From an uncultured Collinsella sp. (GTDB lineage: Bacteria; Actinomycetota; Coriobacteriia; Coriobacteriales; Coriobacteriaceae), in contig UQIV01000001.1 of NCBI GenBank assembly GCA_900541205.1, positions 97,593 through 161,592 on the forward strand: DNA of 64,000 nt, read 5' to 3'. Made by a program: the position numbers and the translations under genes. The notes under the pieces were generated by a model that was not told the DNA's origin, did no database searches, and worked only from the letters and a program-made list of their open reading frames with translations. Below, one piece after another: positions 6,037 through 62,396 of the stretch (its first letter is position 1; every line of letters starts with the position of its first letter).

Positions 6037-6078
6037 CGAAAACGGACCCGTTTCCCTAGGGAATCGGGTCCGTTTTTC
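6037..6078 (+). terminator. strong intrinsic terminator after the aminotransferase
   Basis: Near-perfect ~20-bp palindrome GAAAACGGACCCGTTTCCCTA/TAGGGAATCGGGTCCGTTTTT, followed by a T-run. Confidence 0.7.
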
Positions 6079-13330: not shown

Positions 13331-14998
<1,668 letters not shown>

Positions 14999-15942: not shown

Positions 15943-15977
15943 CACCTCGCTGACCTGCATATTTATAAATATTAAAG

Positions 15978-16046
15978 GGGACGGGCCCCAGATTGCCGAG
16001 ACGCACTTTTGCGCGCATGGGCAATCTGGGGCCCGTCCCATTTTTC
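15978..16046 (+). terminator. very strong terminator after xerD
   Basis: Perfect 20-bp stem GGGACGGGCCCCAGATTGCC/GGCAATCTGGGGCCCGTCCC with a 22-nt loop, then ATTTTT. Confidence 0.8.
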
Positions 16047-46125: not shown

Positions 46126-46134
46126 CGCGACCCC

Positions 46135-46179
46135 AAACCACCGCAAAGGTGCCTATCCCCTTTGCGGTGGCTTGGGCTG
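46135..46179. terminator. bidirectional hairpin between the convergent SGNH hydrolase and thiD
   Basis: 18-bp stem CCCAAACCACCGCAAAGG/CCTTTGCGGTGGCTTGGG with one mismatch and a 9-nt loop. Confidence 0.55.
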
Positions 46180-51550: not shown

Positions 51551-51717
51551 TGACGCAGGCTCCTTTCGGATCGATCGTGCTGGTTGATGTACCGTGAGCC
51601 ATCGTATCACGCGCGGGCCCGCGGCGGCAGGGAAGCCTGATGTGCGGTGGCCGCGGGGCGGGGAGCGTGTAAACTGGTGTGAGCAAACCGTGCCCAGCCC
51701 AAAGCGAGGTATTCAAT

Positions 51718-54468
51718 ATGTCTGACAAGCGCCGCACCTTTGCCGTTATCGACGGCAACTCGCTCATGCACCGCGCCTTCCACGCCGTGCCGCCCACCAT
51801 GAATGCGCCGGACGGGCGCCCCACCAACGCGATCTTCGGCTTTCTGAACATGTTTCTCAAGATGATCGATGCCTTTAACCCCGACGGTGTGGTCGTGGCG
51901 TTTGACAAGGGCAAACCGCGCGTGCGCATGGAGATGCTGCCGCAGTATAAGGCGCAACGCCCGCCCATGGACCCCGATCTGCATGCGCAGTTTCCGATGA
52001 TCAAGGAGCTGCTCACCGCGCTCAACGTGCCGATTCTGCAGTCCGAGGGCTGGGAAGGCGACGATATCCTGGGAACCATGGCGCGCCTGGGTGAAGAGGC
52101 CGGCTGCGACATGCTGCTGGTGACCGGCGACCGCGACATGTATCAACTCGTGACCGAGCACGTCAACGTGGTCTCGACCCGCAAGGGCCTGTCCGACGTG
52201 GCGATCATGACGCCCGAGAGCGTGGACGACCTGTATCACGGCATTACGCCGGCGCTCGTGCCCGATTTTTACGGTCTAAAGGGCGATACGTCGGACAACA
52301 TTCCCGGCGTACCGGGCATCGGCCCCAAAAAGGCGAGCGCGCTCATCGCACAGTACGGCAGCTTGGACGAGGTCATCGCGCATGCCGACGAGGTCAAGGG
52401 CAAGATGGGCGAGAACCTGCGTGCGCACATCGACGATGCGCTGCTGAGCCGCAAGGTCGCAACCATTCGCACCGATGCGCCCGTCGAGCTCGACTTTGAC
52501 GAAACGTCCTTCCCGGCGTTTTCTGCCGACGAAGTGTCCGCGGCGCTGGGCACGCTTGGTATCACCGCCATGCAGAACCGTTTCTTGGCGCTGATCGGCG
52601 GCGAGGGCGGGGCTGCTGCTGCCTCCAGTGTGTTTGAGATACCTGCGATGGTTCGCGCAGCCGCCGGCGATGCCGACGCGCTTGGTGCCGTTGCGGCTGA
52701 GGTTTCCCGCGCGATTGATGCCGGCGAGTGGGTCGCCGCCGTGGTGGACGACGACAAGGAAGAGGGCGCGCTCTTTGGACTGACGCGCACGCTGTGGTTG
52801 GCGACGTCCAAGGGCCTGTTCGCGCTCGAGGAGGGCGACGGCGGTACCACTGCCGTAGTCGATGGCTTCAACTTCGCCCACGGCGTGATTGCCGGCGTGC
52901 TTGCGCGCCTGTTTGTGGAGGGCCGCGTGGCGAGCCCGGATATGAAGGCGTTGTTGCACGAGCTTTCGCCCATCGATTCTTCTGAACTCGAGCTCATGGA
53001 TCCGCTCGCTACCGATTCCACGCGTATCTTCGATACCGTGGTCGCTGCCTATCTGCTGGATTCCGATCGCTCCGAGTTCGATGAGGCATATCTTGCCGAT
53101 ACGTATCTGCAGATGGCGCTGCCTGCGGCGCGCGGCGCAGAGGGTGCTGGTGAGGACGCTCCGGCGCCTGCCGCCCGTACTGCGGCTCTGACGCTGGCGC
53201 TCGTGGCACCGTTGCGCGAGTGCATGGCCCGTGAGAATGCCGCCAACGTGTTCGATGGCATCGAGATGCCGCTCGTTCCGGTACTTGCCAAGATGGAGCG
53301 CGCGGGCATGCTCGTGGACCCCGACCGTCTGCACAGTCTGTCCGAGGGTCTGGCGACCCAGATTACCGAGATTGAGCGCAGTATTCGCGACCTGGCGGGT
53401 GACGAGACCTTTAATATTGGCAGTCCCATGCAGCTGTCGCATGTGCTCTTTGATGTGATGGGGCTTCCGACCAAGGGCCTCAAGAAGACTAAGCGCGGCT
53501 ATTATTCGACCAACGCCAAGGTGCTGAGCGACCTTGCGCGTGACCACGAAATCGTGCGTCTGATCTTGGACTGGCGTGAGAAGTCTAAGATCAAGTCCAC
53601 CTATCTGGACACCCTGGGCCCGCTACGCCGTGGTGACGGTCGCGTACACACTACGTACAACCAGACCATCACGGCAACGGGGCGTCTGTCCTCGAGCGAC
53701 CCGAACCTGCAGAACATCCCGACGCGCTCGGAGCTGGGTCGTACCGTCAAGACGGCGTTTTCGGCAGGCGAGGGAAGCGTCTTTTTGGCGGTGGACTACT
53801 CGCAGATCGAGCTGCGTCTGCTGGCGCATCTCTCGGGTGACGAGCACTTGGTGCGCGCCTTTAACGAGGGCGAGGACTTCCATGCCGAGACGGCGGCGCG
53901 CGTGTTCGGCGTGCCGGTGTCCGAGGTAACGCCCGACCTGCGCAGTCGCGCCAAGGCCGTGAACTTTGGCATCGTGTATGGTCAGCAGGCCTACGGCCTG
54001 TCGCAGTCGCTGCATATCTCGATGGCCGAGGCGCGCGACATGATCGACCGCTACTACGAGGCCTACCCGGGCGTGCGCACGTTCCTCGACAACGTGGTGG
54101 CGCGCGCCAAGCAGACGGGCTACGCCGAGACCATGTACGGCCGCCGTCGTCATATTCCGGAGCTCAAGGCCAAAAATCCGCAACTCCGCGGCTTTGGCGA
54201 GCGCACGGCCATGAACCATCCCATGCAGGGCACCGCCGCCGACATCATCAAGATCGCCATGGCCCGCGTAAGCCGCCGCCTGGAAGAAGAGGGCTTTGCC
54301 GCCCACATGATCCTGCAAGTGCACGACGAACTGGACTTTGAGTGCCCCATCGACGAAGTCGAGCGCCTAACCACCATGGTCCGCGACGTCATGGAACACG
54401 TAGTAGTCCTCCGCGTCCCCCTAATCGCCGAAGCTTCGACTGGAGTGACCTGGGCAGACGCCAAGTAA
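51718..54468 (+). CDS. polA: DNA polymerase I
   Basis: A 5'-3' exonuclease N-terminus (RTFAVIDGNSLMHRAFHA) and Klenow-like polymerase motifs (RRHAKAVNFGIVYG, HDELDFE). 917 aa from MSDKRR. Confidence 0.9.
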   Translation: MSDKRRTFAVIDGNSLMHRAFHAVPPTMNAPDGRPTNAIFGFLNMFLKMIDAFNPDGVVVAFDKGKPRVRMEMLPQYKAQRPPMDPDLHAQFPMIKELLTALNVPILQSEGWEGDDILGTMARLGEEAGCDMLLVTGDRDMYQLVTEHVNVVSTRKGLSDVAIMTPESVDDLYHGITPALVPDFYGLKGDTSDNIPGVPGIGPKKASALIAQYGSLDEVIAHADEVKGKMGENLRAHIDDALLSRKVATIRTDAPVELDFDETSFPAFSADEVSAALGTLGITAMQNRFLALIGGEGGAAAASSVFEIPAMVRAAAGDADALGAVAAEVSRAIDAGEWVAAVVDDDKEEGALFGLTRTLWLATSKGLFALEEGDGGTTAVVDGFNFAHGVIAGVLARLFVEGRVASPDMKALLHELSPIDSSELELMDPLATDSTRIFDTVVAAYLLDSDRSEFDEAYLADTYLQMALPAARGAEGAGEDAPAPAARTAALTLALVAPLRECMARENAANVFDGIEMPLVPVLAKMERAGMLVDPDRLHSLSEGLATQITEIERSIRDLAGDETFNIGSPMQLSHVLFDVMGLPTKGLKKTKRGYYSTNAKVLSDLARDHEIVRLILDWREKSKIKSTYLDTLGPLRRGDGRVHTTYNQTITATGRLSSSDPNLQNIPTRSELGRTVKTAFSAGEGSVFLAVDYSQIELRLLAHLSGDEHLVRAFNEGEDFHAETAARVFGVPVSEVTPDLRSRAKAVNFGIVYGQQAYGLSQSLHISMAEARDMIDRYYEAYPGVRTFLDNVVARAKQTGYAETMYGRRRHIPELKAKNPQLRGFGERTAMNHPMQGTAADIIKIAMARVSRRLEEEGFAAHMILQVHDELDFECPIDEVERLTTMVRDVMEHVVVLRVPLIAEASTGVTWADAK

Positions 54469-54604
54469 GGGCACACCCACAATTCCAAAGTAATCAAAAC
54501 CAGAAGGACGCCCCTCATCAACAAGGAGCGTCCTTCGTTCAATAAAAATCAGCCAAAGTATCTAGGCGCCAAGACGCCATCCAGGCGGCAAACAAGTCAA
54601 CGTA

Positions 54605-54730
54605 GCCATGCCCGGGGCCGGCCGTTTGATTTTTGTAGATTCCGCACGAGCCGGAAAGCACTTAATGTGCTTTCCGAGCGAGCCCAGGACCTGACCGAGC
54701 AAAAATCAAACGGCCGGCCCCGGGCATGGC
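54605..54730. repeat. compound perfect inverted repeat: 31-bp arms flanking 64 bp that contain a nested 10-bp hairpin
   Basis: GCCATGCCCGGGGCCGGCCGTTTGATTTTTG (54605-54635) is the exact reverse complement of 54700-54730. The inner hairpin is CGGAAAGCACttaatGTGCTTTCCG (54652-54676). It lies between the convergent polA and Cof hydrolase genes. Confidence 0.85.
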
Positions 54731-54741
54731 GACGAGATAGA

Positions 54742-55569
54742 TTACCGAGCCGCCAAGATGGCGTCGATGAGCGTCAGTACGCCCCCGTCGTTGTTGCTCG
54801 GAATGCGCCACTTGGCGTGCGCGTTCATATGCTCCTCGGCGTTGTCCACGATAAAGCTATGCCCGACGCGCTCCAGCATGGGGATGTCGTTGTAGGTATC
54901 GCCCACGGCGGCAGCATCGGCAATATCGATGCCCAGGTGCTCGCACAGGTGAGCGATGCCGGCGCCCTTGTCGACGCCCAGGTTCATAAAGTCGATCCAC
55001 TCGCGCCCGGCGTTGGTGACGTAGAGCTTGTCCGAGAACTCGGGGCTATAGGTCTCGCGGAAAGCGGGCTCGGCGTCGTAGCCTGGGAAGAAGACCGAAA
55101 TCTTGTTGGACTCGAAATCGATGCCCTCAAAGCTGTCGACGTAGTTGATTGTGTTGTAGTAGACGCTGATCTCGTCGTGGTATTGATGGTCGCGGGCAAG
55201 CACGTAGAACTCGTCGAAGCAGCACAGGACGGGGACAGCGCGAGGATCCTCCGAGGCACGGCTCAAGACCTGCTGATACAGCTCCACGTCAATATTGCTC
55301 TTATAGATATAGCTGCCGCGATAGATCACGCACGCTCCGTTATCGGGACAAAAAGCGAGGCGGTTCTTAATGCCCTCGAACATCTCTTCGAGCTTGGGGG
55401 CGGGACGTCCGCTGGCGGGGCAGAATACGATGCCGGCGTCGGCGAGCTTGTCCAGACGCTCGTCGAGACCCTGGGGCAGCACGCGATCGTCGGTCAGCAG
55501 CGTCTTGTCCATATCGACGGCGAGAATCTTAATGTTGCCGATGTTGGCGTCCGATTCGTAAGTTTGCAT
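54742..55569 (-). CDS. Cof-type HAD-IIB phosphatase
   Basis: LAVDMDKTLL motif I and the C-terminal GDTYNDIPMLE motif IV. 275 aa. Confidence 0.75.
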   Translation of the reverse strand: MQTYESDANIGNIKILAVDMDKTLLTDDRVLPQGLDERLDKLADAGIVFCPASGRPAPKLEEMFEGIKNRLAFCPDNGACVIYRGSYIYKSNIDVELYQQVLSRASEDPRAVPVLCCFDEFYVLARDHQYHDEISVYYNTINYVDSFEGIDFESNKISVFFPGYDAEPAFRETYSPEFSDKLYVTNAGREWIDFMNLGVDKGAGIAHLCEHLGIDIADAAAVGDTYNDIPMLERVGHSFIVDNAEEHMNAHAKWRIPSNNDGGVLTLIDAILAAR

Positions 55570-62304: not shown

Positions 62305-62396
62305 ATATTAAGTTGCGGTGAGATAGTTCCTAAAATTACCCGGGTGAGGGGCAAACAGGAACTATCTCACCGCAACTGCGCTAGATGTTCTGGCGC

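Follow-up and report, generated by a model that had tools for sequence, protein, structure and literature searches.

A long palindrome downstream of a Cof-type hydrolase gene in Collinsella and its relatives: intergenic repeats with a conserved centre and variable, complementary arms

In a 64,000-nucleotide stretch of DNA from an uncultured Collinsella sp. (contig UQIV01000001.1, positions 97,593 to 161,592; referred to as the window), the spacer between polA and a gene for a Cof-type hydrolase contains a long palindrome, which is described here together with similar palindromes found elsewhere in Collinsella. The two genes are convergent and separated by 273 bp. The polA gene (51679..54468, plus strand) is an open reading frame (ORF) of 929 amino acids, assigned to DNA polymerase I from related loci where the called gene carries the Pfam 5'-3' exonuclease and DNA_pol_A domains. 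The Cof gene (54742..55569, minus strand) is an ORF of 275 amino acids that encodes a Cof-type HAD-IIB hydrolase with Hydrolase_3/Cof-type HAD domains; its stop codon lies 7-11 nt ahead of the palindrome. The whole palindrome (54601..54734) is composed of arms of 35 bp, with one mismatch, on both sides of a 64-nt centre. Within these arms, a perfect 31-nt segment on the polA side (54605..54635), GC-rich outside and T-rich inside (GTTTGATTTTTG), has its exact reverse complement on the Cof side (54700..54730). The arm sequence is found at only these two places in the 64 kb, with 0 occurrences expected (100 shuffles). The apex is a perfect 10-bp hairpin (CGGAAAGCAC/ttaat/GTGCTTTCCG; 54652..54676, minus strand) whose 5-nt loop reads AUUAA on the minus strand. 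The original prediction had reported the perfect 31-bp arms, the 64-bp centre, the nested 10-bp hairpin and the convergent spacer, and all are confirmed in the sequence. The predicted folding energy of the palindrome is -96.2 kcal/mol on the plus strand and -97.8 kcal/mol on the minus strand, against about -45 to -50 kcal/mol for shuffled sequences (z = -12.5 and -11.4, respectively; none of 200 shuffles was equally good). The minus strand of the window corresponds to what is called below the pattern strand of the repeat family, the organism belongs to the C. aerofaciens group, and the allele is that of C. aerofaciens ATCC 25986.

The palindromic symmetry continues outside the arms. An outer inverted repeat of 17 nt (88%) pairs a segment of the spacer (54573..54589), complementary to the last Cof codons, with the 3' end of the Cof coding sequence (54749..54765). 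Such outer repeats carry the symmetry to about 190 nt, with scores of 24-30 where the shuffle maximum is 22-23, and at the locus L005 the outer repeat reaches 27 nt. The flank on the gene-distal side, GTTGACTTGTTTGCC (54586..54600, minus strand), is a mildly T-rich, GTTGAC-like tail that is seen at this place in most copies of the family.

No T-run directly borders the palindrome, as the original prediction had stated. The prediction had overlooked a canonical intrinsic terminator on the Cof strand (54493..54536, minus strand), made of a 15-pair hairpin at 54503-54536 followed by TGGTTTTGAT, which is the sole canonical terminator-like site detected by a consensus scan of the polA-Cof spacer. 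This hairpin is separated from the palindrome by 64 nt, which is in line with the earlier remark that the stem far exceeds the needs of a terminator, and its own stem covaries among the loci with an identical Cof protein. As the terminator is kept in a relative that has lost or never had the palindrome, it is regarded as a host feature outside the repeat; and as it lies beyond the palindrome on the Cof strand, the palindrome is placed within the 3' untranslated region (UTR) of the Cof gene. The plus strand downstream of polA (54469-54540) has no U-tract terminator: a hairpin after the stop codon is followed by an A-rich segment, the U-tract being on the Cof strand only. Transcription of polA probably runs into the palindrome or is terminated in a Rho-dependent manner. 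The absence of a terminator proper to polA, the convergent genes, the GC-rich stem and the mildly T-rich flank of the pattern strand would suit a large bidirectional factor-independent ('I-shaped') terminator common to polA and Cof. We consider this function very improbable, because a separate U-tract terminator follows 64 nt further along the Cof strand and persists in the relative without the palindrome, because the order gene, element, terminator recurs at other copies, because a conserved 64-nt centre at dozens of loci is needless for termination, and because some copies abut downstream ribosome-binding sites, for example those of thrB and valS. Intrinsic and 'I-shaped' actinobacterial terminators are, like the family, GC-rich hairpins at gene ends that fold on both strands, but the stem of the family is 3-5 times longer, its 64-nt centre is conserved and structured, it has no U-tract, and the terminator is a separate structure. 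The insertion of a small element into the loops of terminators was likewise rejected, since the arms are far too long, no U-tract comes after them and the true terminators are distinct.

Ten metagenomic or genomic loci were picked solely for an identical Cof protein, and the palindrome is at the same place in all of them (10/10). The 64-nt centre is nearly invariant among these loci; the arms are very different alleles, complementary within each sequence. This pattern excludes both a chance palindrome and a structure in which the arm sequence alone matters. The family was defined by the core motifs CA[A/G]G?TCCTG and GTGCGG[A/G]A placed before and after an apical hairpin, by near-perfect arms of at least 24 bp and by an intergenic position. 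The window copy has this core, arms of 31-35 bp and an intergenic position, and scores 124.6 bits on the minus strand with the covariance model R1. A scan of one genome per species with a pattern made from the two invariant core motifs matched at least 120 stretches, nearly all titled Collinsella or Coriobacteriaceae; among the matches listed, the exceptions are one metagenome-assembled genome (MAG) titled Slackia and one titled Subdoligranulum. The core is therefore present at several Collinsella loci and is not single-copy, so the circumstance named in the original prediction as speaking against a repetitive element does not apply. The matches represent at least four genomic contexts, several of which can come from a single genome: downstream of Cof, between clpX and valS, between an aminotransferase gene and the rplJ promoter/L10 leader, after metG, alaS and nanE, and others. 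In the clpX-valS copy, one arm stops about 10 nt from the valS ribosome-binding site. A covariance model of 17 representatives revealed an additional, more divergent copy directly past the valS stop codon, present in the 21 loci (21/21) that reach that far, and valS is bracketed by two inverted copies.

The core was also used as query in a BLAST search of PLSDB, which gave a match to NZ_OY725717.1 from C. aerofaciens TSDC17.2-1.1. PLSDB and RefSeq list this record of 899,693 bp as 'plasmid 6, complete sequence'; its content of ribosomal-protein operons, rpoB/rpoC, recA, dnaE, secA, secY, rho and many aminoacyl-tRNA synthetase genes identifies it as a piece of chromosome and not a plasmid. A hidden Markov model (HMM) of the core detects 13 copies at E < 1e-8 in these 0.9 Mb. 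All 13 lie between genes; their perfect arms measure 25-50 bp and their predicted folding energies range from -107 to -157 kcal/mol. Scaled to a genome of 2.4 Mb, their density suggests a few dozen copies per genome. An HMM built from these 13 copies alone recovers the window copy at E = 6e-15 and no other credible copy across the window; a weak match at 13667-13752 lies inside a 553-amino-acid ORF and was taken as chance. From these searches we have next to no doubt that the window palindrome belongs to a real multi-copy family, in which it represents a minority sequence subtype, the majority core type being slightly different.

The whole unit measures 130-190 nt and is organized as GC-rich arms of 25-50 bp, a short A/T-rich inner segment and an asymmetric core of about 64-75 nt. 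The arms are G-rich on the 5' half of either strand and frequently start with GGWCC. For the inner segment, the main type has TAAGGTTT/AAACCTTA and the window copy GTTTGATTTTTG/CAAAAATCAAAC. In the window, the conserved core (54636..54699, minus strand) comprises a 7-nt bulge CUCGGUC, the helices AGGU/AUCU and CUG/CGG, the latter with an invariant U-G pair, an internal loop and the apical hairpin. Across the family, a one-strand bulge of 5-7 nt is followed by a helix of 3-4 bp, AGU/ACU (AGGU/AUCU in the window subtype), then by a helix CUG(C)/(G)CGG with the invariant U-G, by a middle helix that is mismatched or fully paired depending on the variant, and by an apical hairpin of 9-10 bp with the loop AUUAA. 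The 5' core motif is TCGGTCAGGTCCTG in the window subtype (54685..54698, minus strand) and CTC[TA/GGG/GGA]CAGTCCTGC in the majority type; the 3' core motif is CGTGCGGAATCTAC (54635..54648, minus strand) and CGTGCGGAACTCGCGA, respectively. The pairing is maintained by changes on both sides: such changes are observed at 24 of 25 arm pairs, with 92% of cells paired against 68% in shuffled alignments and at most 46% with slid partners, and at 8 of 16 core pairs, with 96.5% of cells paired against 84% when shuffled. The apical stem covaries between strains and between loci, from A-U to G-C and from G-C to C-G. The T fraction of the gene-distal tail is 0.32, compared with 0.20 on the other side and 0.19 genome-wide (p = 0.01).

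Three other structures were considered and rejected. In some copies, the 5' bulge and the GTTGAC-like tail could pair over 5-6 bp as a pseudoknot, which is broken in many others and shows no covariation. A promoter inside the element was suggested by a TAGATT -10-like box (54638-54643, plus strand), which is found in the window subtype only and has no -35 box; the consensus scan was negative. Resemblances to the signal recognition particle RNA (GGUCAGGUCC) and to 5S rRNA (ACCUGACC and GAACUC) concern one subtype only or opposite strands, and have no Rfam support.

The arms evolve in a manner very different from their surroundings. Between strains, the Cof coding sequence is 98.3-99.8% identical and the 3' end of polA mostly 94-99.7%; the arms of different allele classes at this locus are only 59-70% identical, and about 97% of their positions are Watson-Crick paired. 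On a minimum spanning tree of near-identical alleles (50 edges), 16 changes are compensated in both arms, among which 5 transversions, where about 0.1 is expected under independent one-arm mutation; the same edges show 44 one-arm changes. The transition mismatches have no strand bias: 22 of them would read as G-U on the pattern strand, and 29 would do so on the opposite strand (where the pattern strand has A-C). A strand test by folding energy gives no significant difference between the two strands. The window and the locus L004 have identical arms, yet differ at four compensated pairs of the apical hairpin. Apical variants are few and the same ones recur at different loci, which together with the L004 comparison points to the exchange of short patches between copies.

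At the rplJ locus, the palindromic symmetry takes in a degenerate copy of the rplJ promoter in inverted orientation. The rplJ leader of Collinsella itself scores 31 bits with the Rfam model L10_leader, for which the gathering score is 44 (L013:2739-2886, minus strand, with equivalents in L016 and L132); it is preceded by a good TTGACC-17-CATAAT promoter, whose inverted copy, with a shortened spacer, is on the far side of the repeat. Some arms are similar between loci: the uvrD copy and the B allele of the Cof locus share CGGACCTGGsCGGGCG, with a score of 14-16.5 for a shuffle maximum of 9.5. This residual similarity, significant in a few locus pairs, shows that the arms are inherited with the element and diverge afterwards. 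The idea that the arms are inverted duplications of the local host sequence was rejected for the main arms, given their G-rich 5' halves, the frequent GGWCC start and the similarity between loci, although it may explain the outer extensions.

Template switching is known both to create and to repair perfect hairpins (PMC8794818). Quasi-palindromes modified by this mechanism in E. coli and yeast, and the hairpins of RNA genes (PMC8794818), display arm changes that are copied across, transversions and multi-base patches, and can extend into the flanks, as does the family. The lack of strand bias, the equal folding of the two strands, the replacement by patches, the symmetry past the arms and the compensated changes all lead us to infer intrastrand template switching. 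Complementarity would thus probably be kept mainly by DNA-level templating from arm to arm, and not by compensatory selection on the RNA of one strand. As a mutational mechanism, template switching explains the perfect arms, but not the conserved core or the polarity described below.

Chimeric elements, in which the left and right arms come from different alleles or loci, are seen in the MAG contigs L040, L084 and L106, and the contig L114 stops within the core, in Nextera adapter sequence. When Collinsella metagenomes are assembled, the common core is probably a cause of breaks and false joins, and genuine recombination there may also be a source of the chimeric arms.

Part of these data could be read as the signature of a structured non-coding or cis-acting RNA transcribed from the pattern strand, whose core would bind a protein or a ligand or would catalyse cleavage, the long stem being a scaffold or an RNase III processing signal. 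The core is conserved and asymmetric, its helices covary, and it has invariant U-G and G-U pairs, to which A-C mismatches would correspond on the opposite strand; 26 pairs are counted in the consensus of the pattern strand compared with 21 in that of the other one. Moreover, the helix P2 switches from AGU/ACU to AGGU/AUCU between subtypes, and nine copies are in sense orientation, 2-44 nt past a stop codon and upstream of a terminator. On the other hand, about half of the copies are upstream of genes in the opposite orientation, whose mRNAs would carry the complementary strand. The arm mismatches show no G-U excess on either strand and the folding energies are equal, and compensated transversions between near-identical strains are hard to obtain through RNA-level selection alone. 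No match was obtained with Rfam 15 at gathering thresholds in 144 kb of sequence including the window; at E-values up to 10, the window copy and another copy matched only models of eukaryotic miRNA precursors, below threshold and through the plain hairpin. Taken together, we consider the RNA explanation unlikely.

The original prediction had proposed a miniature inverted-repeat transposable element (MITE) or an element similar to the repetitive extragenic palindromic (REP) sequences. The family does share with MITEs a small size, the absence of coding capacity, inverted-repeat arms, multiple copies and intergenic positions, and a non-autonomous mobile element (MITE- or REPIN-like) or its decayed remnant, spread by transposition and without host function, would account for these features, for the arms that are alike across loci and the several that begin with GGWCC, and for a Cof site at which the inner 155 nt are missing. 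The borders of the copies do not support this origin, as no target-site duplication was found: the best direct repeat at the junctions averages 3.15 nt over 20 copies, against 3.17 nt at random junctions. No terminal inverted repeats are conserved between copies either, the arms being locus-specific with few pairs alike and a GGWCC terminus in some; a conserved centre with unconserved arms is the reverse of a MITE. The positions are fixed, since every Collinsella locus of Cof context examined keeps the element and dozens of GTDB species have it at the same sites; about 1 Mb of related loci revealed no insertion polymorphism. No related autonomous element or transposase was found. The sole HUH-type transposase in the 0.9-Mb record is that of two IS200/IS605 tnpA copies, and a link with these was rejected because both are ordinary insertion sequences whose end hairpins are unrelated to the family; no gene for a RAYT (TnpA_REP) is annotated within this record, which is part of one genome. 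No relevant match was found in phage genomes, and viral contigs gave 3 matches in 2.9 million. An origin from a phage or a plasmid was thus rejected, the sole 'plasmid' match being the mislabelled chromosome fragment. The MITE proposal consequently fails on the target duplications, the arms, the fixed positions and the missing parent insertion sequence, and the probability that we attach to a mobile element of any such kind is distinctly low.

The incomplete Cof site is that of L151, where the Cof orthologue is 76% identical. The outer 9 bp or so of each arm are fused there as a mini-palindrome, CTGTCCGGATCCGGAGCC, and 155 nt are gone, with the spacer and the downstream terminator intact. This state is read as a deletion, because it fits a slippage between two copies of a palindromic hexamer in the arms; alternatively, it may be an ancestral empty site. 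In place of polA, L151 has a ParE/Phd toxin-antitoxin pair and a gene for a LacI-family regulator (L151:2452-3022), so the gene order at this junction varies within the genus. Among more distant Cof orthologues, the element is at the same site in one with 69% protein identity and absent from one with 63%.

The prediction had also mentioned a degenerate attC site. The sites attC are, like the family, imperfect palindromes (57-141 bp) found after a stop codon in a fixed orientation, with structure conserved over sequence and extrahelical bases, and the GTTGAC-like flank loosely recalls the attC core site GTTRRRY. The resemblance is reversed in the essential part: attC sites conserve their base (the R and L boxes) and vary at the apex, whereas the family conserves the apex. 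Furthermore, attC sites flank mobile cassettes in arrays beside intI, and the copies of the family neighbour housekeeping genes such as polA, valS, rplJ and groES, with no integrase gene annotated or called beside any copy examined. The probability of an integron attC site is negligible.

The copies are distributed in a polar manner relative to genes. Twelve copies are situated within 50 nt of a gene boundary, and 11 of them turn the 5' end of the pattern strand towards the gene. This end lies 2-44 nt past the stop codon of a gene on the same strand at Cof, valS, manA, uvrD, tsaD, pnp, nanE and two hypothetical genes, and it abuts the start of a gene on the opposite strand at thrB and valS, the rplC copy being the exception. 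In the spacers with two copies (pnp-rnj and tsaD-cstA), the stop codon is followed by a pattern copy, then by an anti-pattern copy and the gene start. Copies on the 5' side often precede strongly expressed operons (rplJ, rpsL, rplC, groES, valS, rnj). A canonical U-tract terminator is found beyond the element at the Cof, uvrD and hypothetical-gene (hyp870) copies, and the order between thrC and thrB is thrC terminator, element, thrB ribosome-binding site. Because the canonical terminators lie beyond them, the elements are situated inside the predicted transcription units and are not the terminators themselves.

Such a distribution could also reflect a site acting at the DNA level, as a cruciform or a hairpin extruded by transcription-driven supercoiling or formed on single-stranded DNA, bound asymmetrically and serving as a polar boundary or as a recombination, nucleoid or topoisomerase site. 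The strand-symmetric behaviour of the arms is consistent with this explanation, as are the mirrored copies around genes (valS; pnp-rnj; tsaD-cstA), the enrichment just upstream of the strongly expressed operons rplJ, rpsL, rplC and groES, and the symmetry that enters the Cof coding end and the rplJ promoter copy. However, no candidate binding protein or recombinase is linked with the copies, an asymmetric spacer of 64 nt disfavours the extrusion of a cruciform, and assembly artefacts account for the chimeric arms of some MAGs more simply than recombination does. We hold a DNA-level site of this type to be improbable.

The reading that we favour, to which we give about an even chance, is that of a long-hairpin repeat with DNA-templated arms that provides a stable hairpin at the boundaries of transcription units. 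In this model, replication would be accompanied by intrastrand template switching (quasi-palindrome correction), in which one arm serves as template for the other, and copies would exchange short patches. The element would then be an exceptionally stable hairpin at a transcription-unit boundary; that of the window would be transcribed in the Cof 3' UTR, upstream of the terminator at 54503-54536. The hairpin might protect or insulate the transcript ends, or act as a processing or pause site, and the conserved core might be the docking site of a putative host factor. Protection, insulation or processing of transcript ends of this sort is known for the REP, BIME, ERIC and Correia elements. By analogy with these, we propose the boundary-hairpin function and the docking role of the core only tentatively, at a confidence somewhat short of even.

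Several points weigh against the favoured reading. The one-arm mismatches outnumber the compensated changes (44 against 16), so the correction of the arms is not instantaneous, although part of these mismatches may be assembly noise of MAGs. The excess of pairs on the pattern strand in the core consensus, with its invariant U-G and G-U, is more easily reconciled with a strand-specific RNA than with a feature of the DNA alone. The conservation of the core may result from concerted evolution between copies instead of function. RNase III, which is expected to cut long perfect double-stranded RNA, may destabilise the transcripts instead of protecting them. The chief gap is that a hairpin acting by its structure only leaves the asymmetry of the core and the polarity of the copies unexplained. 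A more speculative possibility, which we regard as doubtful, is a new class of polar, structure-specific elements. Their conserved, asymmetric core, as RNA, single-stranded DNA or cruciform, would be read by a putative factor encoded by the host or by the element; it would lie within a long helix whose arms drift freely by mutual templating. In Coriobacteriia, such elements would flag where transcription units begin and end, as a processing or insulation signal, as a new class of structured RNA or ribozyme, or as a mobile element that builds its own arms.

The family was compared with the intergenic palindromic repeats of other bacteria, to which its presumed action is closest. REP sequences of proteobacteria, their BIME assemblies and REPINs are also intergenic, palindromic and multi-copy, and often located at the 3' ends of transcription units; REP/BIME hairpins in mRNA can stabilise the upstream transcript, and BIMEs join inverted units around a conserved central motif. 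REP units nevertheless measure 20-40 nt, are conserved in sequence, including GTAG, occur in hundreds of copies and are linked to a RAYT transposase, while the family has long, locus-unique arms, a conserved centre only and tens of copies (about 13 per 0.9 Mb). GTAG or CTAC is found in one core subtype only, in contrast to the GTAG head of REP. The REP-like, repetitive nature put forward in the original prediction therefore stands as far as the multiple copies are concerned (13 per 0.9 Mb and other Collinsella loci), but not for the REP unit itself. The ERIC/IRU elements of enterobacteria and the Correia/NEMIS elements of Neisseria resemble the family as imperfect palindromes, about 100-160 bp long, that lie in either orientation within intergenic regions that are transcribed and have a functional centre, which in Correia is an IHF site; the long stems of ERIC and Correia are cut by RNase III once transcribed. 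They differ from the family in that their entire sequence is conserved, including the terminal inverted repeats, and Correia makes TA target duplications.

A search of the literature by motif string, organism and keywords returned no description of the family. One microbiome survey (PMC8040213) reports 250 unnamed palindromic candidate RNAs whose sequences were outside this search, so an earlier cataloguing without characterisation is possible. The family is apparently undescribed, and its organization, with a conserved centre and hypervariable, self-correcting arms, inverts the usual pattern. Few actinobacteria of the human gut are as abundant as C. aerofaciens. If the favoured reading is true, its genomes would offer dozens of independent long palindromes in which arm-to-arm correction can be measured against neutral flanks, which bears on the old question of how perfect RNA or DNA stems originate and persist. 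The conserved asymmetric core of about 65 nt would be open to direct fishing of its putative partner, whether a protein, an RNase or a recombinase. It would also be a practical warning that repeats sharing a core, beside housekeeping genes that are used as phylogenetic markers, break or chimerise assemblies. Were the elements merely neutral hairpins, an annotated repeat family of moderate interest would still result.

Other palindromic repeats were encountered during the analysis. A second family with the arms GGGACAGGTTTATTTTGG... / ...CCAAAATAAACCTGTCCC, unrelated to the main one, occurs 4-7 times in NZ_OY725717.1, with sites at positions 52654 (L134:2654), 537895 (L143:37895), 433461 and 680162 of the record. 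At rnj, at rpsL and, past the copy upstream of valS, in L023, it is the direct neighbour of the main family, an arrangement which suggests that palindromic repeats cluster or target one another. In distant Coriobacteriia (the MAGs labelled Subdoligranulum CAG:314 and Slackia), a further long palindrome follows each copy at 10-70 nt (L083:7450-7620, L087:1385-1550 and L127:1335-1480). Its centre reads GTCTGCGTTCA...TGAACGCAGCCAG..GGGCGCATA..GA...CGGTAGC, and since it combines a conserved centre of its own with locus-specific arms, it represents a second family of the same architecture. In Paratractidigestivibacter and its relatives, the spacers downstream of Cof (L154:2400-2760 and L155:2340-2640) contain repeated hairpins, GGACCAAGTGGAGCCGTTTTCTTGGC and CGGGAGCGTCGGTACCGACGCTCCCG. 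Intergenic palindromic repeats thus appear to be general in Coriobacteriia.

The window itself contains additional inverted repeats. Positions 15974-16043 form a hairpin with 31-nt arms, 87% complementary, and an 8-nt loop, followed by TTTTTCG. This hairpin and the shorter ones at 355-396, 6039-6076 and 46132-46176 are without the family core and resemble the usual intrinsic terminators. At 62311-62377, a perfect inverted repeat of 21 bp, AGTTGCGGTGAGATAGTTCCT, encloses a 25-nt spacer; its arm is found once in NZ_OY725717.1, at position 311441 beside IS21-family genes, and the repeat may be the remnant of an insertion-sequence end.

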